DNA of 62,862 nucleotides, filler included, from Neolecta irregularis DAH-3 (taxonomy: Eukaryota), in the NCBI GenBank assembly GCA_001929475.1. It is 11 parts of 11 records of this genome, joined end to end, with 100 filler letters (N's around TTAATTAATTAA, not from the genome) between each part and the next. Parts side by side here need not be neighbours in the genome. Positions count along the whole stretch, not along the records: positions 46,580 to 50,058 come from LXFE01000664.1; 10 more parts are not named here. One strand, written 5' to 3'. Below, one piece after another: positions 3,392-61,639 of this stretch; position 1 is the first letter of the stretch; every line of letters begins with the position of its first letter. Under the pieces are notes generated by a model that saw only the letters and a program-made list of their open reading frames with translations, ran no database searches and had not been told where the DNA came from. The position numbers and the translations under genes are program-made.

Positions 3392-3491
3392 NNNNNNNNN
3401 NNNNNNNNNNNNNNNNNNNNNNNNNNNNNNNNNNNTTAATTAATTAANNNNNNNNNNNNNNNNNNNNNNNNNNNNNNNNNNNNNNNNNNNN
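3392..3491. other. artificial scaffold linker N44-TTAATTAATTAA-N44 (also at 8197-8296, 20747-20846, 23952-24051, 26640-26739, 27775-27874, 46480-46579, 50059-50158, 57462-57561, 61488-61587)
   Basis: Identical 100-nt pattern with stops in all six frames, repeated ten times. Confidence 0.99.
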
Positions 3492-4796: not shown

Positions 4797-5362
4797 ATGG
4801 TGTTATTGCGAAATATAACATGCCTCCTTTCTGCAGGAATCGCTGTGGGTTCTTTTCTGCCAGACCCACCGATTGACTGTTCTGTCGAGCACATTTTTCA
4901 TGGAAAGGCATCTCCACGGGGTGGGACTTATTTCGCTCATTACTCCCTCCCCGAGTTTGACCCTTTGACAATGGATGCCAAGTTTGGGACAGATCCAGAA
5001 GGAAAGTGCGAACACTATTGTCGGCTGGAGTCCTGCACATATATGGGGGTTCGTTATTATAACTTCAACCCGAGTTGTTACCTGTAAGTTCAACTGTTTG
5101 CAGATTTCCTGACAATGATAGGTTTACCATAGACCCGACCAAGATTCTCGGCGGTCTTCAAGACGCCGAGATGAAGACCGTCGAGATAAATATGAGCCTG
5201 GATGTCTATAAAGTAAACTATCCAACTGTGGATGAAGATCCACTCTCGGATGATGATGATCCTGATGCATTCGAGAAATTTTTGAACAAGTGTGCTATGT
5301 CGTCGCCCCAGCGAGAAGCTATGTCGTCGTCGCCGCCGCGAAAAAAGCTCCGCTTCGAGTAA
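4797..5362 (+). CDS. secreted PAN/Apple-like protein with acidic patch and C-terminal NLS-like motif; intron 5084-5121
   Basis: Hydrophobic N-terminus; C-EHY-C-RLES-C...SCYLF after removing a GT-AG intron; ends PPRKKLRFE; TATTTAAA upstream at about 4753. Confidence 0.7.
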
Positions 5363-8196: not shown

Positions 8197-8552
8197 NNNN
8201 NNNNNNNNNNNNNNNNNNNNNNNNNNNNNNNNNNNNNNNNTTAATTAATTAANNNNNNNNNNNNNNNNNNNNNNNNNNNNNNNNNNNNNNNNNNNNGTTG
8301 GTGGTGACTGTGGCGACCCGGGGATTCGCGATCGTATGGGGACGTTCGAAGTCCCCACACCCATTCATCCAAAATGTAGATAGTCAGCCAGTACCTTCTT
8401 TGTAGTCTCTTGGGTGGTATCAAGAAGCGCAGAAGTAGAAACAGATGCATTTACTCTTCTACAAAATGAGAAAAGCCTCAAAGGCAAAAGTGTGTCTTTT
8501 CGTCCGTCAACAAGGCTTTAAGAATCCAGTCTAAAACACATCAGTTAAAGAT

Positions 8553-20746: not shown

Positions 20747-20846
20747 NNNNNNNNNNNNNNNNNNNNNNNNNNNNNNNNNNNNNNNNNNNNTTAATTAATT
20801 AANNNNNNNNNNNNNNNNNNNNNNNNNNNNNNNNNNNNNNNNNNNN

Positions 20847-23819: not shown

Positions 23820-24051
23820 TTTGTTTATTATGTTGTGCGAAGCTAAGTTTATTGAGTTGGGTTGAGGTTGATTGCTTTTCTGGTCTTGAATTTTACCATA
23901 AGTATAGGTAAAATATAGCTGGAAAAACTCCCAACTATCGTTCGCGGCAAANNNNNNNNNNNNNNNNNNNNNNNNNNNNNNNNNNNNNNNNNNNNTTAAT
24001 TAATTAANNNNNNNNNNNNNNNNNNNNNNNNNNNNNNNNNNNNNNNNNNNN

Positions 24052-26433: not shown

Positions 26434-26524
26434 TTCCGAATCCGGGAATTGAACCCGGGTCTCATCGGAGCTACCAAGCAGATATCTTGAAAGCGATATA
26501 TACTAGCCACTGTACTAATTCGGA
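26434..26524 (-). tRNA. tRNA-Glu(TTC) with a 19-nt intron
   Basis: Acceptor TCCGAAT/ATTCGGA, D arm, anticodon stem TATCG/CGATG with CTTTCA, T arm CCGGG-TTCAATT-CCCGG. Confidence 0.93.
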
Positions 26525-26739
26525 CTGAGTGAATATACAACTTTGAAAGTTACATATATTGGAAACNNNNNNNNNNTAACTCTTTTTGTTCACCGGCGGT
26601 AAATAAGCGATCCGATATATATGGTGGGACGTTTGAAAANNNNNNNNNNNNNNNNNNNNNNNNNNNNNNNNNNNNNNNNNNNNTTAATTAATTAANNNNN
26701 NNNNNNNNNNNNNNNNNNNNNNNNNNNNNNNNNNNNNNN

Positions 26740-27774: not shown

Positions 27775-27874
27775 NNNNNNNNNNNNNNNNNNNNNNNNNN
27801 NNNNNNNNNNNNNNNNNNTTAATTAATTAANNNNNNNNNNNNNNNNNNNNNNNNNNNNNNNNNNNNNNNNNNNN

Positions 27875-29009
27875 CCCCCCGCCTGCCCCGCCCGCCGGAG
27901 GATCTCCGGCAGGCGGGTCAAATTTTTCCGGCGGCTGGTCTTTTTTGACAATTTATATATGTGCAATACAATCTTCACTAAATAACCAAAACTGCTAACA
28001 TAAAATGATTTCTATCTGGTCATTTCTTTTATTGGTGAAGTATGCTGCACATACAAATGCTGATCACTGTGTCACATGAGACAAATCTTGCGAGCCTAAC
28101 TTTGAGCAAATTGCAATCAATTCACAGTTCAACAACCAACCAATGTATTCAAACAAAACAAACACTATCGAGATCAGAATTTTAAAGGCAAAACTAATGG
28201 TCTGCCAACAAATTCAATACAAGAAAGTCAAAGGGGGACATTTAAAGAAGCATCACATGGAGGAAACTACCAAACCGCCGTACAACCTAACAGCCTCCCA
28301 GAACATTCTCCAGATGGTTGGTTGGATCTCTTGGTGAAGGCGGGAGACATAAACATCTGGTCTGAGAGGCCCTACCCGCCAGAGAGGTTCCGGCGGGCGC
28401 ACAGTTTAGATTTTTCCGGCAGGCGGCCTGCATCCTAATCCTCCCACATTGTTGCGGATGGACCATGGACTTAATCCAGTCCATTAACAGTCCATGGATA
28501 AAGTCCATGAACTGGACTATGGATAAAGCCCGGCCCATGGTCCGTGGGCCTAATGGGTCATATCACGTGATATTAGATTGTAGGGATTAATCGCGTCTAT
28601 CAGTGACATGGAAAAGGCTCTGCTTGCTGCCTCTTACTCCCCTACTCGCTTCCTCTCACTCCCCTGCCCATTATCGCCTGCCCTCCTCGCCCGTTACTGC
28701 CCGCCCTCCTCGCCCTTTATCACCCCACCCTCTCGCCCGTTATCGCCTGCCCTTCTCGTCTGTTATCGCCTGCCCTCCTTGCCTGCTATCGACCCGCTCA
28801 CCTCGCCCGTTACTGCTCCCCCTCCTCGCTCTTTACCGCCCGCCCTCTCGCCCGTTATCGCCTGCCCTTCTCGTCCGTAATCGCCCGTTATCGCCTGCCC
28901 TCCTTGCCTCCTATCGCCCCGCCCACCTCACCCATTACTACTCCGGGCGGGTGGGCGATCTTCCACCCGCTCGCCGGTGGTCCGCTAGGCGGGCAGTGTG
29001 GACACACTG
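27875..29009. mobile_element. nested cluster of hAT-like non-autonomous remnants, including C-rich minisatellite 28620-28935
   Basis: GTCCA/TGGAC and GGCCC subterminal repeats, GGACACACTG end at 29009 as in the MITE at 46230-46290. Confidence 0.55.
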
Positions 29010-29107
29010 GATTTTTAGTGTTGATACAACTGGGTCTCACCATATTGTAAGCATTGCAGCGTATAAGCTAAATATAAAAGAAAAGATATATTAACATACA
29101 TATTAAA

Positions 29108-29251
29108 TTACCAATTCACAAAGTCATTCCGACCCCAGCGTCGCTGGCACTGGGCTGCTGCAATAATATCTGGTTGAAGTTTAGATCGACGAGGCTCAAA
29201 CATATCACCTGCCTCACTAAATGCTCTTCCACAATTAGCACTTGATACTGG
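29108..29251 (-). mobile_element. hAT transposase C-terminal dimerisation-domain fragment, cut by another element at 29252
   Basis: PVSSANCGRAFSEAG...RRSKLQPDIIAAAQCQRRW matches the hATC pattern P-x-SS...R-x-FS-x-x-G...R-x-x-L. Confidence 0.8.
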
Positions 29252-29750
29252 CAGTGTTTGCAATGGGCCATGGGCCGAAACGGGCCTTTTCACGTGATAT
29301 TAATAATACTACCATGTCTCCTCCCTAACCGCCTTCCTACCGGCTTCGCCTGCCCGCCTTGCCAGTCCATCTCGCCAGCCTCTTCCACCTCACCCTCCTC
29401 GCGCTCCTCTCCAGCCTTGTGTGCCTGTCTTGCCCACCTCGCCTGCCTCACGCGCCTCTCCCGCCTCACGCACCCATCTCTCCCGCCTCGTGCTCCCATC
29501 TCGCGCTCCAATCTTGCCCGACTCGCGCACCTCTCCCACCCTACGCGCCTGCCTCACGCTCCTGTCTAGCACGCCTGTTTGGCCCACCTGCCTTGCCCAC
29601 CTTGCCCACCCGCCTGTCAGTTTCCTTGCCAATATTTAGATAGATATAAAGAATTATTTACATAATATAGAAATTAATTTTTACTTGCCTTTTAACATAT
29701 TCCTGCCCTGCCCATCTCTGCACTGCATGCCACCACCCAAATTGGCCGTC
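29252..29750. mobile_element. hAT-like non-autonomous element remnant
   Basis: CAGTG TIR matching the 4539 end; pyrimidine-rich repeats; segment homologous to 7900-8070. Confidence 0.65.
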
Positions 29751-30053
29751 GTTTGTACTCTAGCGTGTTTGGAGTGGGTTATACCCTTGGGCAGAGCTTA
29801 CCATTACGGAAGGAAGGCTTGCAATAATATTGCGGCATTTTAATAGTATTATATGAAGTAGATAGGGTTAAGCTAAGTTCAGTCCCTTAGGCTAGGTATG
29901 TCCGCGGGGAAGTTCAGTTACTTAGGCTAGTATAATAAAATCTGGTCTTATTCGAACTCGAGCTTCAACACTTACAAGGTTTCATTGTTGCCTTGAAAGC
30001 CTTGTAGTGGTAATTTTGGTGAATCACCGTGCAGTCTATCAGAGGTTTCGTCA

Positions 30054-31660: not shown

Positions 31661-32821
31661 TTAACCTGTGGAGGAACTCGTATCTCCACTACTTCCAATG
31701 TCTTCATCTTCATCCATAGCATCAAGGACCAAGTCCAAATCGTTATCAATCTTCCACGCCTTTGTTTTCATACTAGCTTTAGCTCTGATTCCAACACCTC
31801 GTATTAGGTCAATCCAAGATAGTGAAGAACTACAGCCAGGACAGAAGCCGATAATTGGTAATAGAGATTTGCTTTTGTCAAGGAAGATCGCAGCAAGGCA
31901 ACGGACGTGTGCGAGATGAGTACACGGTCCTGAAGTACATAGTATTATGTTTTCGTGTGGCGACGTTAGAGTTTGTAATAACTTTGCGGAGAAAGGTTTT
32001 AAGCATATTGAGCAAATCTTTCCTTCAATTCCGTTATCAAAAATCTTTTCAGCCTTTTCGAGATGATCTGTAGTGAACTTTGCTATTTGGTCAACCGCAG
32101 ATCTAACAAGTAGTTGCACTTGCGAGGAGATCGATCCCCTGTACCCCACCAAATTCATCTGGCTTATAAATAAGGCGCTTTGTTTTTGAAACTGGGCTTC
32201 CAGGCAATGGAGTTTTCTCTCTTATTTTCCCTGGTCTAAGGGGGATTTCATGTGCCGGAGACCCTTCCTTGGTCTCAACTGTCCTTTTTCTTGGATCTAA
32301 TTCGAGAGTAATATGAGCAGGTAACCCTCCGGAAGCCTTGTCGAGGATCTGTTTCCAAATGATCCAAACTTCTTGTGAAAATATTTTCATTTTCAGAGGC
32401 CACCCACTCCAAGCATCAGATGTCAACATAGCAAATACATTCTGAGCGCTTTTTTTAAGGTCAAATCGAGGACTCGAAGCGCGCTTTCTAGCTGATTTAG
32501 AACCGCGAATTATCGATCTTGTTTCCGACGGTAACCGAAGTGTTTTATGAGGATGTTGCCAGGCCCATTCAAACTGCAAAGCCGCAAGCTTTGAGGGAAA
32601 GCCATACACTATCATGGTCATATCCCATGGTCTTCTTTTGCTTGTTTTGGAAGCACCAGAGGATATTAGTCCGTTGTGTTGCCGGAGACGCTTAAACGTT
32701 AATTGGTTGTTATTGCTAAGAGATATACGCGTATTGGATTTGGAGTTGAACCTATATAGACTGACTTTGGAAATGAGAGGGATTTGAGGAGATAGCAGGC
32801 GTAAAAAGACGGGACGTCCAT
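31661..32821 (-). CDS. SLX1: structure-specific endonuclease Slx1 (GIY-YIG + RING-like), multi-exon
   Basis: FYACYLLKS...[27 protein letters not shown]-terminal CSIC...C...C..H..CL...CPGC...W. Confidence 0.95.
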
Positions 32822-34044
32822 TGGGGCAGCCTCGCGGCGGTTAGGCGGATTACTAAGCCGCCCGGCTGCCGAAGAGGTCTGAACCGCCCGCCCTCTCCGG
32901 CAGGCGGTTGGGCAGTTGGGCGGGTCGGATAGAAGGAACAGAGGGATAAAGTGTATAGTGTAGTATATTGTTTCAAAACTGGTGATAAGTATAAACATAT
33001 ATGCTAACTGCATTTCTACTTCTATTATTCTATTATGCCATTCTAATGTTGTTGTTTTTGCCCTTTGGTTAATTAAAGGCCTTTCCACGAGGAGAAATAA
33101 TAGCAACTGAAGAAATGGCCAGAGAGAAATCAATTTATCTTGGCAATTTTTGTTATTTAGTGAATGCAGGACAGCTTGTCCATTCATTTCACTTAGCAGA
33201 CAAACAACCCGAACCGACAACTTTCTGTTAATTCGGAAATGTCTGTCAAAATCCACAATTAGACTCTCTGCTCCGACCTTTGAATTTTGGGCAGAATGAT
33301 CCGAAACAAAAGTCTTTCGCTAATCTCGTATCTCCGTTATTCGCAGTTGCTGCCTTGATTACTTGATACATGTTCAAGACAATTGAAGAAAACAGAAAGC
33401 ATACAGGTACAAAGACTAAGTTTATGTCTTGTATGAGGGGCATGTTCTACGTAACATTGATGCTGGCTGATACTTGTAGGAAACTCAACTCGTTGATGAA
33501 ATCTACTTTCATTTCCCAAAGGGATTTTCCATGTCGAAAAGTTGAAATAAGGAGTTAGCTTTTACTTCTAATTATTGAGCCTTCTGGGGGTGCTCGCGCC
33601 AATTAGGACACGGATTGAACAGCGACCTATGTTGGGATTCCAGCGAATCAAGATCTGCAATCATACCTGATTGACCTCGAGCTTGATATATGTATTGGAC
33701 CAATACTCATAGTCACCAGGCGCTTCTATTTACCCCTTTATTGTCGTATTGGCTGGATGCTGGATAGTCGAGATCACGGCGACTGGGTTATGCTGATAGT
33801 TTAGGCAATAGTCAATCAGCTAGTGACACACTCCATAGTTCCACTTTTGCCACGTTTGTGCAGTGTCATTGTCTCCACTGGTTCGAGTCACATAGCTTTT
33901 CTCCTCCTTTATCCTTTTACACGGTCTCTTCTGGCCGAAGGCCGGTCTCGGTGGCCCGAAATTCTTACACGCACCCCATCGATCTTGCTTGCACGACAAA
34001 CCGTTCTAGCATTTCAAGTTCAGTCTTGTTATAATTCCGAAATC

Positions 34045-36605: not shown

Positions 36606-37553
36606 ATGACCAGCCCGACATTTTGTAAATCTCGGTATCTGATCTTATACTTAATCCATGCATTAGATATATTTTGCGATTTCGATGAAACAATCACGCT
36701 CAATGATACCCTCCAATTAGTTGCTTCAGCAGCCTACGATTCTCCAAATAGAGCAGTTGCAAATCCACCACCATGGAGCTTTTTCGTTGAGAGGTGCATC
36801 ACAGTATCTCTAAATTAACTGGAAAGTTATCTAGCGGATTACGCAGAGCAGAAACAATCTTACGATCCCATAGTTACCCTTGACCAGGAACTTGATTTTC
36901 TTCGGTCGCTCGAACCGATTGAGCTCAAAAGTGTCCATCGAACTGAATATTTGCAGTTGTTTAAAGGAATAACGGATGATGATATCGCAAAAGAAGCGAC
37001 CAAAGTCGAATTTCGAAACGGCTGGCATCAGTTCGTTCATGAAATACTTGGTCGAGGCTATCCACTATGTGTTATATCTGTCAATTGGAGCGGCTATTTC
37101 ATTTCAAAGGCTTTGTCATTAGACACGACGACATATCCTTCGATTCAAGTCATTGCAAATGAAATCATTATGGATGCTGACGGCCATGCTTCGGGGAAAC
37201 TATCAAAATCAAATGAAGCAGATATACGAATAGGTGACGATAAAAAGAGAGAGATGGAGCAAGAGCTCAAAGAAATGAAATTTGATGGGAAATCTGTATA
37301 TTTTGGAAATTCGACTGGGGATCTGCCTTGTCTCCGTATATTCCCTCCTGGTTCCACGATTTATTTTCTAGTCACCGCCGATATAGGAATCATCATGGGA
37401 AAGGATGAAGATTTCCTGGCCAGCTTGAAGGACTGGAATATTCAAGTGGTTCGTAAGAGTTCTATCCTTACAATCCTCGACTCTGCCTCTTGTCTCCATC
37501 AGAGCTCGAAGAAGAATATGCTTCTTTATCAGGTCGACGATTGGACTTTGTGA
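36606..37553 (+). CDS. HAD-superfamily hydrolase (Cto1/MtnX-like), multi-exon; 3' end approximate
   Basis: DFDETIT, ISVNWS, ANEI, YFGNSTGDLPCL...ADIGI. Confidence 0.8.
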
Positions 37554-42463: not shown

Positions 42464-44919
42464 TTAAAAATCTTCCGTACCCTCAACAGTTAGATCTTTG
42501 GAAATTATTAAATCGTCCAGCTGTTCGCTACCTTTGATTTCTAGCCCCTTCTCATTCGCAAGGTGTAACAGACAAATAAAACAAAAGCTCGTCGAGATAT
42601 CAGCCATCGCTTTTTCTGTGTATGATTTCGCCAGTCCGTTGATGATTTCAGTGAATCTGCGAGGTTCGTTGGATGTTGATTTAGGCGGTAACGAAGGGAC
42701 ATCTAGATCCATCATCTGTTCAGTTAGCAATGAAGCTTGATAAGACTTACCATTGTGTCCTCATCTGGCAGTTCTTGTTTATCCTCAAGGTCAAGCTGCT
42801 GCCAAATGTTTTCCTTCAACTTCCTTACGTCAACCTTCTTTGCGACTCGTGCAAAGTTAACGTATTCAGACTTTGCTCTCCTTGCTTGCGCAATGAGATC
42901 ACTTCCAAAATTACCTTCCTGCGTTGCAGTTGGGATATCTGGAGATTCTCTTGCATCCACAAAATCATCGTCATCATCAGGAATCATTACACCACCATCA
43001 TCATCGTGAAAAAAATTAGCATCATAGGTTTGCTTAGGCACTACATCATTAGTCGAAAATTTGTCATGCTTCCATGCAGTCATTGCTTTCATGATTGATT
43101 GTCTGATTCGCATTCGCCCAAAACTTTTCGTCCATATCAACATATTCGCCATTTCGATTTGGGCCATTTGAATGTAGCTTATTAGTTAGTCTACCCAATA
43201 ATTGTTTGTAGATACCATAAACTTTGGCTTAATGAACAAGCTCAATAGCTGCTTTGAACTGAAATGAATATCATCTGGCAGTAAATTCCTTGTCGTAGAT
43301 TTCCACTGCGTTTTCGGAAGATAAATCGTAGCTCCTCCTTGTGAAAAAAGAGAGTCCTCGTCAAGATTATCTGCATCCATGAAATCAATCTGAAAAACTT
43401 CCTTCTCCTTCCGTTTCCTTGGTTCCGCTGAACTGGAATTTTCTTCCTATAAATACCTATTTCTGAAAGTGATCATATACCTTTCTTTAGCCTCTGAATC
43501 CTCCAATGTTCGGGTCCTGCCCAATTTCTCCTTAATGCCTGATCAAAATACGCAAAAAGATTATTCTCATCACCAGCTTTCATAACCATGACATAATCGC
43601 TCTCGGTTAGATTCTTCAGGGGTCCAAATCCCTCTGATGCCCGTTCCATTTCTCCTGCAACGGATTCATTGGCCCAGGCATCTCCCCCTTCACCGAAAAT
43701 AGGGTTGTCGTCTTCTAAGCCATTCATAAAAGACAGGTCCACTCCGGGATCACTGTCATTATCTTCCAGTAGTGCTGGATCATCTCCATCGTTGACTAAA
43801 GAAGAATCACTGTTTTCAGTTTTGGAGTCAAGATGGTCTTTCGCCCATGGGATGTCGAAATTTTTGCAATTGCCAAATTCAAAATCTTTAAGGCTCGGGC
43901 AGATATCTTTCTCATCTAGTAATTCAAGGTCGGGTAGAAATCGATTTCGAAGGGAAAATATATCAATATCGATATGTTCATTTGTTTCATCCTTCTTGTC
44001 TTTGACTGCTGCGTCACTGGCATCGAATACAATCCTCCCTTCACCATCTATGCAAAGGTGATTGAGTAAGAGTCCTTTCGCACCACCTTCATCAAAATCG
44101 GCAGAGGTCTTTTTGAAAAGTGGATCAACGGAAAATTCCAGGTCAAATTTCTTGATTTGGAGAACAGCAAAGTCCTTAACGAGGGTCGCTTCTGATCGAT
44201 TTGCCTGAACCATTAGCTTATCAATTTTAGGAACATTATACCCTCCGTTTCTTAGCCTTCTCATCTCCAGACCCCAGATCACCATCTTCTTCACTTTGTA
44301 CTTTTTTCGAGGCTAGGTTGTGAGCGGGGGGCCGGACGGTTGAGAAACACTTGAACTATCAGCCAACCCACTCAGCAATTTCCCTGTTTCTGTAGCGACT
44401 GAATCTATTCGCGAGGTGTAAATTTTGACACATCCGTCGAGCGTGCACGATGCTTTCTGAAAGTTGATTCCATCACCATCTCTCAATAACGACATCTCGT
44501 GAAAATAATCAATTAATGCGAAATTCCAACTATTGGTGGCATTAATTTTCTGATATTTAGTAGAGCGCTTCTAAGAAACGCACATTGTCAGTCGCCAACT
44601 TCATCCATTCTTCAAAATCAGCCAATATAGGGACCTTTACTGCGGGTGTGATTGGCACCAGTCCCTTTGGTCTTTGATCATCGGGTGTTAAAGGCGAAGA
44701 GCCAAAATGTGTTTGGTGTGGAAGAGCTCTGCGTGGAGTGGCAGCAGCAATTAGATTACTTCTATTTTGAATATCGCGAGCAGACTTTTCGTCTCTCCGT
44801 CGTTGTTTTTCGGCAGAATCGTCATTTAACGGCACGAGCCTGGATAATGGAGTCGCGCCGTTTTTCGAAGGTGATCTAATCAGCGATTTGTGTCGAGAAT
44901 GTTTAGCTGGTGGTTGCAT
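42464..44919 (-). CDS. BRN1: condensin kleisin subunit Brn1/Cnd2 (barren), multi-exon
   Basis: FEEWMKLATDNKINA, NFQKASCTLDGCVKIYTSRIDSV, DPLFKKTSADFDEGGAKGLLL, NWAGPEHW, FICLLHLANEKGL. Confidence 0.97.
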
Positions 44920-46290: not shown

Positions 46291-46579
46291 GTTCTAATCT
46301 CTTCAAACCTATTCTAAATCTAGTTCGATTAAATTCTCAGAGTTCCGGTATGAGAAAGGTCTAGCGGCAGGAATTCTTGTAGTTATCCGTGCGATTCGGA
46401 TCTGTTGTGCAAAATATGAGGACGACAGCGAAATATCAACGTAATTGATTAAGTACCAGTAGTACTTGTTTCAACCCCGNNNNNNNNNNNNNNNNNNNNN
46501 NNNNNNNNNNNNNNNNNNNNNNNTTAATTAATTAANNNNNNNNNNNNNNNNNNNNNNNNNNNNNNNNNNNNNNNNNNNN

Positions 46580-46858
46580 AAGTAGGAGAGGCAGGCGAAG
46601 TAGGAGAGGCAGGCGAAGTAGGAGAGGCAGGCGAAGTAGGAGAGGTGGGCAGGGTGGGTAGGAAGGTGGATAGAGTTAAGAAATGGAAGGGGAAGGCCCT
46701 CACCACCACTACTACTATATGCTATCCAAATATCCAAATATCCAAATATTTGACTACTAGGATTTGGTTTATATTTGGCTAATTTTGAGCTCATTTGATT
46801 TGGCTATTTGGCAAATATTTGAATTTGGTTATTGTGGTTTGATTTGTTAGGAACACTG
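46580..46858. mobile_element. terminus of a CAGTG-ended element with 18-bp tandem repeat (AAGTAGGAGAGGCAGGCG)x3.5
   Basis: Tandem repeat at 46580-46645, AAATATCC x3, ends GAACACTG. Confidence 0.5.
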
Positions 46859-47410
46859 CTAAATGTTTCAAGACTTTGATGAACCATGGACTCAAGATTG
46901 GCAATCATCTCAATGGGGAGAGAGGCGGGAGAGAGGCGGGTGAGACAGAACGCTGGAATGACGGAGAGCACCGGCGGGGGTAATCCTGATGGCTATGATG
47001 ATGTGTAAGCACGCGACCGTGGGGGTTGGTGTTTCTCGGACCTGGGCGTAGTATTCTGCAACTGGTGCCTCACGTAAAGCAATACAGATATTGGATAATG
47101 GGTTTCAGTGTAGTCGGCTAGTCCTGCGAAACGCTACTTGTAAACAGACTCGGCTCGTTTGTTGAGGTGTTCGCCTCGCTTTGCCCTGCGATGCCTGCGA
47201 TAGGCCGGAACTGGATGGGCGGCCCCCTGTGCTCCTCTCGACGATTGGACGGTGGCCGGAGACCACCTGGCGGGTCATCTTACGGTTGGGCAGAATCGCA
47301 GCAGGGGTCTGTTTCACTATTTCCGACGGGACAATATATAAACGACGTTGGGCAGCATCTATTTTAATAATCTACGCGTCGTTTTTCACGTTCCTATTCT
47401 TCCAATATTC

Positions 47411-47575
47411 ATGAATCGCTTCCACACCGTGCTTACCATATTCGGGTTGTTCTGTCCTTTGGGATTGTCAATGCCATTTGATGCAAGCGCGTCATTGACA
47501 ATACGTGAGAGCCAACCTGATCGTATAATTCGACGAGAGGGTTGTCTCCATTCTAGATCAGACAAGACTGATTAA
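47411..47575 (+). CDS. secreted peptide precursor (54 aa, intronless): signal + pro + RR + EGCLHSRSDKTD
   Basis: MNRFHTVLTIFGLFCPLGLSMP...IIRREGCLH; TATATAA at about 47335; clear paralogue at 49776-49977. Confidence 0.7.
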   Translation: MNRFHTVLTIFGLFCPLGLSMPFDASASLTIRESQPDRIIRREGCLHSRSDKTD

Positions 47576-47959
47576 ATATAGCCCAGAGCTTGTTCCTAAA
47601 TTTTGTCTCGCTGAGGGGGGGAGGTGGTGGCGCTAATACACAAGTGACAATACTTGTCTGGTTGTACTGAATCGTTAGGTCGCCCAGTAGGAATCCGATT
47701 TAATCTGGGAAATGTGATCAAGTAGATGGTGTCTGAATCTTCTTGAGGGTTGGGATTGTATTGTGTTGTGCTGTCTTTGGTCGGGTGGTTGATTAACAGA
47801 GATTTTCGTTGCTCCATTTAGTGTGCTCTTCCCTAAACTCGGCAGGCAGCGGTATTATGATATGAGCTTTGTATCTATTTGTGAGTGAACCTATGTACTC
47901 TTTAATTTTTAATCTTGTCGCTCAAGAAAAGGCACTCCCTTGGCCTAACTCCACTCCAA

Positions 47960-48830
47960 ATGAACAGTCGGCGATTTCTCTCACTATGCCCTATCCCCTC
48001 TCGTACTTGTATTCATCGTGCCATCTGACTTGTAGGCAGTCCATCACTTTATCCAGGTCATGTTCCTCTCTCGCTACCTGAACGAATTATGCTTGCCATC
48101 GGCTCTGCAGTAATGTCTCTTTACAATCCTCGTCGCGCCGGTACTAGCCCTTTGTCTATTCGCCGACTTGACGAAAAGACATGATTGCGGCACTATCTGA
48201 AGCAACGTGTTCACCCTTCTTCATCCAGGCCCTACACAGAGACATGCTCTCTACAAAATCAGGAAGAAGAGTCCTACGTGATCGACCAAGAATAACATCA
48301 GCATCCCTAAACCTACCCAAACTCCGCTCCCTACCAGCAGGATCTGTCGGTAAAGAATATGTTAATTGGCTGGACGTGGAACACGTCAGCCCCGATACCC
48401 GAACACCCGTAATAACCCTTAGCATTTTTAATCAATTGATAACAAGGTTCGATACATTGACGATCCGGAATTAGCCTACGTTATGCAACGGCACCGCGAA
48501 TCCCACGATTTCTACCACGCAATCACTGGTCTTCCCGTTTTCATCGAAGGTGAAATCGCATTAAAATGGTTCGAGTGGTGTAACATGCGTCTCCCCGTTG
48601 CCGCCCTCTCGGCTTTATTCGCACCTTTAAAACTCCCCTCGCCTGCTCGTCGGCGGTTGAGGGAAATTTATATCCCATGGGCTGTGCGTAATGGATTGAA
48701 AGCAAACAGTTTAATTGACGTTTACTGGGAAGAAGAAATTGAGAATTCTGCAGATGAACTGAGGGCGCGACTGGGAATTGAACGACCACCTGATTTGAGA
48801 AATTTGAGAAGAGAGACAAAAGGACCGTGA
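47960..48830 (+). CDS. COQ4: ubiquinone biosynthesis protein Coq4, multi-exon
   Basis: [39 protein letters not shown]...GEIALKWFE. Confidence 0.96.
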
Positions 48831-49006
48831 CAAGATTTGTTGATTTGGGGGTTTCCGCTTCTGAGCAATCTGTTGACCTTTCTCGATATATTCAGCCATA
48901 GTGTCGAAGGCATAACTACTGTTTACGATCCATTGAATATAATACTTTTCATTGATGGAAGGGACATTCACCTGCTCCTCGTTGACAAGAAATAAAAAAT
49001 AAAAAA

Positions 49007-49122
49007 GGAAGAAGCAACAAGTCCCAACCCCGGGATCCCCCTAGCCATGCAGCGCTCTGCATACTCCCAATGGTTCACATTACCCAGGGCGACAGCTAAC
49101 TGAGAAACCTCCGTTGACTTCC
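49007..49122 (-). ncRNA. candidate structured ncRNA of unknown class, followed by an oligo-T tract
   Basis: GC-rich island with nested helices (see findings) and T6-A-T6 immediately downstream. Confidence 0.35.
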
Positions 49123-49304
49123 GAAATACTGATGATCGAAGGAATTATGAAGGCGCTTGAATTTGAAGGAACGAAGGGCAAGGATTTGAGGATAATTATT
49201 TGAAATAAATAAATATAATATTGGATTTAATGAAGGTTGATTATTAAATGCCCAACAATTGAGGGCGTAGGGGTGGAAAAGGCCATTCTACGCATTCATA
49301 CAAA

Positions 49305-49388
49305 CATAGCACTTGATACTGGTATTGTCAAGATATCAAAAGCTAGGTGACTGAGAGTTGGATAGGTGGTTTGTTGCTGTATCCAGTA
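49305..49388 (-). mobile_element. hAT dimerisation-domain fragment (N-terminal half)
   Basis: YWIQQQTTYPTLSHLAFDILTIPVSSA; last 15 nt identical to the start of the 29108-29251 fragment. Confidence 0.75.
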
Positions 49389-49775
49389 AGTTAGGGTTAG
49401 GGTTTTACAGAAAGCTTGATCAAGCAGAATTGGTTTTTGGCACAAAGCCTTTTAAGGTCCCACAGAGATACATAATCACACCCATATGATAATACTGCTG
49501 CCTGTCGAGTTTAAGGAAGAGCACATTAAAAGCAACAAAAATCTCTGTTAAACCACTAGGCAAACGATGGCAGAACACAATACAAAGTCAATTGTCAAGA
49601 GAAATAACAGATCAATTTCACTTCTTCCCATTTCCTGGAGGCAAACGGAAGCAAGCCCCTATCGTTTCAGTACCATTGGACAAATATCGTCAAATACTAA
49701 TATAAACGTTAGTCATCTGGCAGCTCAGTCGAAGTCCAATCTTGGAACAAGCTCTTGGCTATTCTTTGTCAATCA

Positions 49776-49977
49776 TTATTTGCAATGGAGACAACCGTCT
49801 CGTCGAAATTTTGGACTGCCTGGAAGATGTCAGCACAAAGCCTGATCCAATTGTCGTCATACCATCATCAGGTTGGTTATCAGGTTTGGTCAATGACGCG
49901 CTCACATCAAGTGGCATCGTCAATCCCAAAGGACAGAACAAAACGAATATGGTAAACACGGTGTAGAAGTACTTCAT
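49776..49977 (-). CDS. secreted peptide precursor (52 aa; intron 49820-49862): signal + pro + RR + DGCLHCK
   Basis: GTATGA..GCTGAC..CAG intron removal gives MKYFYTVFTIFVLFCPLGLTMPLDVSASLTKPDNQPDDGSPKFRRDGCLHCK*, colinear with the intronless paralogue. Confidence 0.75.
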
Positions 49978-50158
49978 GGAAAGATCGAAAATAAGTAGTG
50001 AATTGCTAAAGCAGATACCCAAGCGAACGTGGTGTATTTATTGTCCCGGAGAAAATAGNNNNNNNNNNNNNNNNNNNNNNNNNNNNNNNNNNNNNNNNNN
50101 NNTTAATTAATTAANNNNNNNNNNNNNNNNNNNNNNNNNNNNNNNNNNNNNNNNNNNN

Positions 50159-57461: not shown

Positions 57462-57561
57462 NNNNNNNNNNNNNNNNNNNNNNNNNNNNNNNNNNNNNNN
57501 NNNNNTTAATTAATTAANNNNNNNNNNNNNNNNNNNNNNNNNNNNNNNNNNNNNNNNNNNN

Positions 57562-61236: not shown

Positions 61237-61639
61237 NNNNNNNNNNGGCGAGATAGAGCGCATAGCTGCCCCCGGCCACAGGCAGCAGCACCGGCCCCGG
61301 GATCTGCAGTCAGCCTCCTGCGGCCAGCCGGGCACTGCCCACTGCAGAAACAGATACGCGCTCGCTCGCAGCAGCACAGACGCGGCAGCAGCGACACGCC
61401 CAGCCATTGCCGGGTGGTTGGAGTCTAGCGGGTGGGTGCGGCAATTAAAGTTTGCTTATATACCCTTAACCCTAACCCTAACCCTAANNNNNNNNNNNNN
61501 NNNNNNNNNNNNNNNNNNNNNNNNNNNNNNNTTAATTAATTAANNNNNNNNNNNNNNNNNNNNNNNNNNNNNNNNNNNNNNNNNNNNTAATTGATTGTTG
61601 ATTAAAAGTATTGAAGTGTTGAAAACAAAGAATCCATAC

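Follow-up and report, generated by a model that had tools for sequence, protein, structure and literature searches.

Do two small open reading frames (ORFs) that lie on either side of COQ4 in Neolecta irregularis DAH-3 encode precursors of secreted micropeptides, or are they frames that have stayed open in an old duplication to no effect? The question concerns a 62,862-nucleotide (nt) stretch of joined contigs from this genome (GenBank assembly GCA_001929475.1; hereafter the window), in which both copies of the peptide unit fall within a single contig of 3479 nt (46580–50058, LXFE01000664.1) whose neighbours across either end are unproven. A first-pass annotation had proposed a pair of Kex2-type precursors, each with a signal peptide, a short propeptide, an Arg-Arg (RR) site and a released peptide beginning (D/E)GCLH. 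The two copies are paralogous, and our best explanation for them is a lineage-specific, fast-evolving gene for a small secreted prepropeptide, present as two diverged paralogues through an inverted duplication around COQ4, a judgement on which our confidence is evenly divided. Short secreted peptides are the probable products of the two units; that these peptides are cut by Kex2, bind metal or act as signals is conjecture.

Two small reading frames in inverted arms around COQ4

The two units flank COQ4 as an inverted duplication of ~575 nt (Table 1) with a mean column identity of 79% over 671 alignment columns; the aligned DNA begins at a TATA-like box, spans the ORF and continues for ~290 nt beyond the stop codon. 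The right arm is cut by the contig end, and the duplication may therefore extend further. A tblastn alignment of the exon 1 peptides (E 2.4e-13) shows 25 identities in 37 positions, and gaps counted by hand number zero in ~114 columns of exon 1, two in ~95 columns upstream and eight in ~345 columns downstream. In each unit the first ATG downstream of the TATA-like box is the start of the ORF, with no ATG intervening. The left ORF encodes 54 amino acids (aa) and the spliced right ORF 52. The positions and description first given for the pair were correct; tblastn across the 62.9 kb of the window returned these two copies only and no third.

Hydrophobic, signal-peptide-like N-termini, which had also been claimed, were recovered in both copies. 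Our test was a home-made heuristic applied to ATG-initiated ORFs of 40–120 aa, with the −3/−1 rule judged by eye, and it passed 3 of 253 such ORFs in the whole window, the left copy among them. Residues 1–27 of that copy hold one basic residue, an uncharged hydrophobic core of 14 residues and A-S-A directly before the predicted cleavage point, with a Kyte–Doolittle mean of 1.83 over residues 6–20. The right copy failed the heuristic solely because its V-S-A sits outside the search range; V-S-A occupies the same place as A-S-A in the left copy, the architecture is the same, and the five substitutions that separate the copies over residues 6–25 are all conservative (L/F, G/V, S/T, F/L, A/V). A language-model measure of 'recognition', for which 2300 is the benchmark, was 2320 in the left ORF and 2065 in the right ORF read without splicing; such values are no proof of a real gene. 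The two other small ORFs to pass the heuristic, at 4797 (+, 96 aa) and 57960 (−, 67 aa), are unrelated in sequence.

Read straight through, the right copy is a 72-aa ORF (49759–49977, −), and removal of 49862–49820 leaves 52 aa with the C-terminus RR-DGCLHCK. The copies differ here by an indel of 52 nt, equal to a 43-nt candidate intron plus 9 nt (three codons), after which both reach RR-xGCLH in frame. The candidate is a well-formed mini-intron in which a branch-like CTGAC precedes the CAG acceptor by 7 nt; it supports the earlier view that the right core becomes readable only through splicing, and its length is normal for the genome because COQ4 on the same contig has introns of 27, 38 and 38 nt. 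When the 61-nt variable segment was shuffled, a frame-restoring intron with a GTA donor, a branch-like site and an HAG acceptor arose in 346 of 20000 sequences, rising to 2379 of 20000 if the branch requirement was dropped. A 34-nt GTATAA...CTAG 'intron' that would excise RR-EGCLH from the left copy was rejected, having neither a branch-like site nor a counterpart in the right copy.

These features suggest a mechanism in which a ~0.57-kb unit was duplicated in inverted orientation around COQ4 and each unit, if transcribed (and, on the right, spliced), would be translated from the first ATG after its TATA-like box into a frame of 52–54 codons. Residues 1–27 would act as a signal peptide for the endoplasmic reticulum, cut after (A/V)-S-A, and the secreted remainder would be a hydrophilic 25–27-mer in which a single RR pair stands directly before (D/E)GCLH. 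A Golgi kexin (Kex2-type) would then cut after RR, releasing peptides of 12 residues from the left precursor and 7 from the right, whatever their activity might be; given real genes, we put this kexin step at about even odds. The two protein sequences have diverged at close to the neutral rate, like those of many fungal orphan secreted proteins.

Table 1. Positions of the peptide units, COQ4 and the linkers, counted along the window
Feature	Position	Strand	Description
Left arm	47317..47864	+	Promoter-like region, ORF and ~290 nt downstream; from repeat pairs and alignment
Left TATA-like box TATATAAA	47335..47342	+	76 nt upstream of ATG; aligns with AATAAATA
Left ORF	47411..47575	+	54 codons and stop, intron-free
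Left signal-peptide-like segment	47411..47491	+	Residues 1–27; heuristic scan
Left RR codons CGA CGA	47531..47536	+	Candidate kexin site, putative cleavage
Left C-terminal 12 residues EGCLHSRSDKTD	47537..47572	+	ORF reads ...RR-EGCLHSRSDKTD
Right arm	49483..50058	−	Reaches contig end 50058; from repeat pairs and alignment
Right TATA-like box AATAAATA	50035..50042	−	Upstream of right ATG
Right exon 1	49863..49977	−	38 codons and 1 nt; signal-peptide-like N-terminus
Right candidate intron	49820..49862	−	43 nt; branch-like CTGAC between GTATGA donor and CAG acceptor
Right exon 2	49776..49819	−	...SPKF-RR-DGCLHCK-stop; RR 49805–49800, stop 49778–49776
Possible hairpin, left copy	47806..47852	+	~230–290 nt downstream of ORF
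Possible hairpin, right copy	49538–49495	−	~230–290 nt downstream of ORF
COQ4 gene	47960..48830	+	4 exons, 255 aa; between both copies, outside the peptide units
COQ4 introns	48009–48035, 48141–48178, 48409–48446		27/38/38 nt; donors GTATTC, GTACTA, GTAATA
Linkers 1–5	3392–3491, 8197–8296, 20747–20846, 23952–24051, 26640–26739		
Linkers 6–10	27775–27874, 46480–46579, 50059–50158, 57462–57561, 61488–61587		

Constraint on the peptides and the search for relatives

A conserved core formed part of the original proposal. The 24-nt RR-xGCLH stretch is 96% identical between the copies, compared with 85% for the whole ORF, and the RR codons (CGA CGA) are the same in both. Several observations weigh against secreted prepropeptides held by selection. 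By the Nei–Gojobori method the ratio of non-synonymous to synonymous substitution rates (dN/dS) is 0.88 in exon 1, whose 37 codons contain 4 synonymous and 13 non-synonymous changes, and reaches 1.01 when 44 codons are taken. These values from two copies do not support purifying selection on the peptide, and 18 substitutions counted by hand divide 5:6:7 among codon positions 1, 2 and 3 and are therefore without a coding signature. Beyond the ORF, a 56-nt patch 230–290 nt downstream is 86% identical and the 18 nt directly 3′ of the stops carry a single mismatch (manual count). Since these non-ORF patches are equally conserved, conservation of RR-xGCLH does not rise above background, and the 'conserved released core' is an impression from two sequences, not demonstrated constraint. 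The idea of a conserved released peptide likewise shrinks to xGCLH, as the tails after GCLH differ and the stop positions are non-homologous; the second Cys, and with it the CxxC motif from which disulfide cyclisation had been suggested, is confined to the right copy, the left reading C-L-H-S. A [KR]R pair would occur by chance within 25 hydrophilic residues about once in 8 cases (a rough estimate from residue frequencies), making the lone RR pair, as a sequence motif, weak evidence of processing. Nor is retention of the signal peptide significant against a neutral-substitution simulation, in which 17 random substitutions left 30–32% of sequences free of stops and with an uncharged core.

Relatives were equally elusive, and the notion of a family found no backing either in a further copy within the window or in a credible relative elsewhere. 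Exhaustive phmmer searching of 1,835,955,588 representative proteins yielded no credible homologue, which also counts against the secreted-prepropeptide reading; its matches P0001 and P0002 (E 1e-4) are tandem-repeat proteins whose E-values come from summed repeats of 18.5–25.4 bits each. A word-indexed protein search returned no match for the left ORF or the unspliced right ORF, Pfam assigned zero families to both, and the Atlas gave nothing usable for the left ORF, its look-alikes of the unspliced right ORF being bacterial lipoprotein clusters at 0.81–0.84, below the 0.9 lead level. A protein-pattern scan of prokaryote genome contigs matched 427 stretches, none of which was confirmed. The 21-mer of the hydrophobic core occurs at one locus in the prokaryote contigs (a Prevotellaceae metagenome-assembled genome), where similarity ends after 29–38 nt and where ~0.3 chance matches would be expected in 596 Gb by our estimate. 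The motifs DGCLH, EGCLH and FCPLGL appeared in no fungal-peptide paper, as judged on titles and the beginnings of abstracts. Small fungal ORFs often go unannotated, and the lack of matches therefore does not confine the family to this pair.

Downstream of both ORFs the conserved patch could form a hairpin, in which 4 of 7 substitutions make up two compensatory pairs, a number reached in 4 of 1000 random-substitution simulations; if real, the hairpin would argue for sense-strand transcription well beyond the stop codon. Its stability shows no excess over shuffled sequence (z −0.04 and −0.51), and counts of 'compensatory' pairs from sliding-window RNAalifold are unreliable where this alignment is highly diverged, reaching 2–5 there. 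At the gathering threshold Rfam found only an unrelated tRNA in the whole window, and at E ≤ 1 the contig gave one 18.5-bit chance match to a bacterial small-RNA family with a gathering score of 103.4. We also rejected the patch as a second exon: it is open for ~24 codons in both copies with a 3-nt indel, but a stop lies immediately ahead of it, five of its six codon changes are non-synonymous and the intron needed would exceed 200 nt, compared with the 27–43 nt of this genome. A more ambitious version of the proposal would draw on this structure, casting the pair as undescribed, lineage-restricted, single-core, kexin-processed micropeptides of 7–12 residues from an intron-dependent prepropeptide, in which the amine, Cys and His of (D/E)GCLH would form a thiol/imidazole head for metal binding or redox chemistry, the variable tails would be selected and the structure in the 3′ untranslated region would co-evolve; we regard it as improbable.

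Alternative explanations and known fungal precursors

The main rival to secreted prepropeptides is non-functional DNA: the frames would be open by chance or in decay within an inverted segmental duplication of old date, perhaps as what remains of a gene that was once real, and nothing would be secreted now. The dN/dS close to 1, the flat codon-position counts and flanks conserved as much as the ORF are all in keeping with it, as are the failure of every search to find a credible homologue, the recurrence of inverted duplications in these contigs and a neutral retention of an open, uncharged core that is not improbable (0.30–0.32). It sits less easily with the rarity of signal-peptide-like starts, the low frequency at which shuffling produced a frame-restoring canonical mini-intron, the indel-free exon 1 and the TATA-like box and first-ATG layout found in both copies, and we consider it doubtful, if well worth keeping in view. 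The genes could also be real and RR unprocessed, the mature product then being the whole 25–27-mer and RR-xGCLH merely its least diverged part. With I or K (aliphatic or basic) at P4 and an acidic residue at P1′, the RR pairs look like accepted kexin sites, and the identical CGA CGA codons also speak for processing. Yet there is one dibasic site with zero repeats, the putative released peptides of 12 and 7 aa have only 4–5 residues in common, and RR is followed by EG or DG and by no STE13-type XA/XP dipeptide of the kind listed among the criteria in the excerpted text of PMC6339444; on this evidence an uncut 25–27-mer is unlikely, although not markedly so.

Splicing of the right copy may be questioned too, in that the unspliced 72-aa ORF with its unrelated C-terminus, or a form spliced at a later AG with removal of a 47-nt intron, would leave only the signal-peptide exon common to both copies. 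The 72-aa frame is indeed open, a second AG lies 4 nt past the acceptor, and intron retention is described as common in fungi (PMC12861292, in excerpt); however, the unspliced C-terminus has no relatives and lower recognition, the first AG past CTGAC yields the 43-nt intron, and only that intron puts the 96%-identical 24-mer in the frame of the left copy, so that we give this alternative little credence. Still less credible to us is that the unit is no peptide gene but specifies a non-coding RNA, or is an inverted repeat related to a transposon, with the small ORF incidental. Conservation that reaches ~290 nt beyond the stop, a hairpin with two compensatory pairs, and arms inverted around a host gene with the right one meeting the contig end would all fit such an element, but Rfam gives no match, the hairpin is no stabler than shuffles, the 62.9 kb contain no further copies, and the ORF list and Pfam show no transposase between the arms, only COQ4 and short ORFs. 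The antisense ORFs (47596–47817, −; 49567–49845, +) were discarded as well, since they read homologous bases in different frames. Finally, MF-alpha1 and MF-alpha2 are a paralogous pair of alpha-factor genes, and the copies might be single-core mating pheromone precursors of this type, with which they would share a pre-pro architecture, a signal peptide and pro-region leading up to a dibasic site and a short C-terminal peptide. The excerpt of PMC6339444 allows as few as one repeat in alpha-factor precursors of Ascomycota and reports two Cys in many Pezizomycotina pheromones, but it gives mature peptides of 9–24 aa, above the 7 aa of the right copy. RR is here followed by EG (left) or DG (right) without the XA/XP STE13 signature, the two 'pheromones' would not be near-identical copies but would differ in sequence and length (12 and 7 aa, with xGCLH shared), and neither holds a W...GQ...C(W)-type motif or any other known pheromone motif, which makes this explanation far-fetched.

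Other classes of fungal precursor resemble the secreted-prepropeptide pair to varying degrees. Precursors of the a-factor type end in a CAAX box and lack a signal peptide; the copies have a hydrophobic N-terminus, and in their C-termini (...DKTD and ...CLHCK) Cys occurs at −2 and −5 but never at −4. Dikaritin-type precursors (ustiloxin-like) of ribosomally synthesised and post-translationally modified peptides have repeated KR-flanked cores and clustered DUF3328/UstYa-type tailoring genes (covered in part by the excerpt of PMC7329392). Such repeats are absent here, and the dikaritin type is therefore not supported, although a contig of 3.5 kb, with only COQ4 besides the ORFs, could miss such a cluster. 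Ece1 is a far longer precursor with several KR sites and several peptides; the copies share no sequence similarity with it and do not suggest an amphipathic helix. The likeness would be that of a secreted precursor from which cleavage after dibasic residues releases an active peptide, in that case candidalysin, a 31-aa toxin (PMC5784256, in excerpt). The KEP pipeline, as excerpted from PMC6339444, selects proteins with a SignalP signal peptide, at least 4 fragments after in silico cleavage and at least 3 repeated motifs split by KR, RR or KK. The likeness to KEPs (excerpts of PMC6339444, PMC7329392 and PMC9769878) lies in a predicted signal peptide and in KR/RR before a short, putatively released peptide, but with one RR site and no repeat the copies are not KEPs; the first-pass annotation had rightly seen that neither ORF has KEP or alpha-factor repeats or a CAAX box.

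The closest fit is with fungal small secreted proteins (SSPs), described in the excerpt of PMC7105643 as shorter than 300 aa, with an N-terminal signal peptide and commonly orphan. Like SSPs, the copies are small, evolve fast, have a local paralogue and are orphans to which no known domain or homologue could be assigned; their signal peptide is predicted by the heuristic. They depart from typical SSPs in lying at the extreme small end (52–54 aa), in having 1–2 Cys after signal removal and no disulfide-stabilised fold, and in that their secretion is putative. It is plausible that they belong to this broad known class, at its smallest end, as genes of the ordinary orphan kind.

Genomic surroundings and significance

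COQ4, the gene between the two copies, was identified by Pfam family PF05019 (E 1.3e-25 and 3.9e-41); the protein closest to it, at 90% identity, is unnamed, and its best named matches are from Taphrina deformans (64%), Tortispora caseinolytica (65%) and Saitoella complicata (64%), a pattern expected of an ascomycete whose close relatives have no annotated entry in the protein collection. Splicing out its three introns yields a full-length product of 255 aa, which aligns with four homologues over 219–245 residues. Introns of 27–38 nt are unusually short among fungi and hint at an intron-minimised lineage; a literature search on intron length in Taphrinomycotina found nothing useful. The first bases of the contig (46580–46668) form a tandem repeat of 18-nt units resembling AAGTAGGAGAGGCAGGCG, given by the repeat finder in a 9-nt register, which is probably the cause of the assembly break there.

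The window joins 11 contigs of 1.0–18.6 kb through 10 identical linkers of 100 nt (N44-TTAATTAATTAA-N44). Its G+C content is ~0.39–0.50, with a peak of 0.504 and a strongly negative GC skew (−0.23) at 28001–30000 and 0.39–0.46 elsewhere. The contig placed next to that of the peptide units contains an inverted duplication with one arm at each end (50159–50671/56949–57461; 513 nt, 93%) and a second inverted pair (51299–51636/56173–56510; 338 nt, 74%), and from its ends open frames of 639 and 577 codons point inward, without a Pfam match; inverted paralogue pairs thus seem to recur among these contigs. A tRNA match at 26434–26524 (−) spans 91 nt on a 71-position model (53.4 bits) and probably contains an intron. 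The 18.6-kb contig has matches to the condensin subunit Cnd2 (43476–44312, −; E 1.6e-63), a HAD-like hydrolase (36819–37550, +; E 2.3e-07) and a GIY-YIG nuclease domain (32106–32840, −; E 1.3e-06).

The pair are ordinary orphan secreted-peptide candidates that open no long-standing question, and not even these two copies agree in the chemistry proposed for them (CxxC, metal binding). Provided that the genes are real, the fungal secretome would gain pre-pro-peptides that are very small and have a single core, a kind that standard gene callers and repeat-based KEP screens overlook, and N. irregularis would hold micro-ORFs that become readable only after splicing, in a genome with introns of 27–43 nt.

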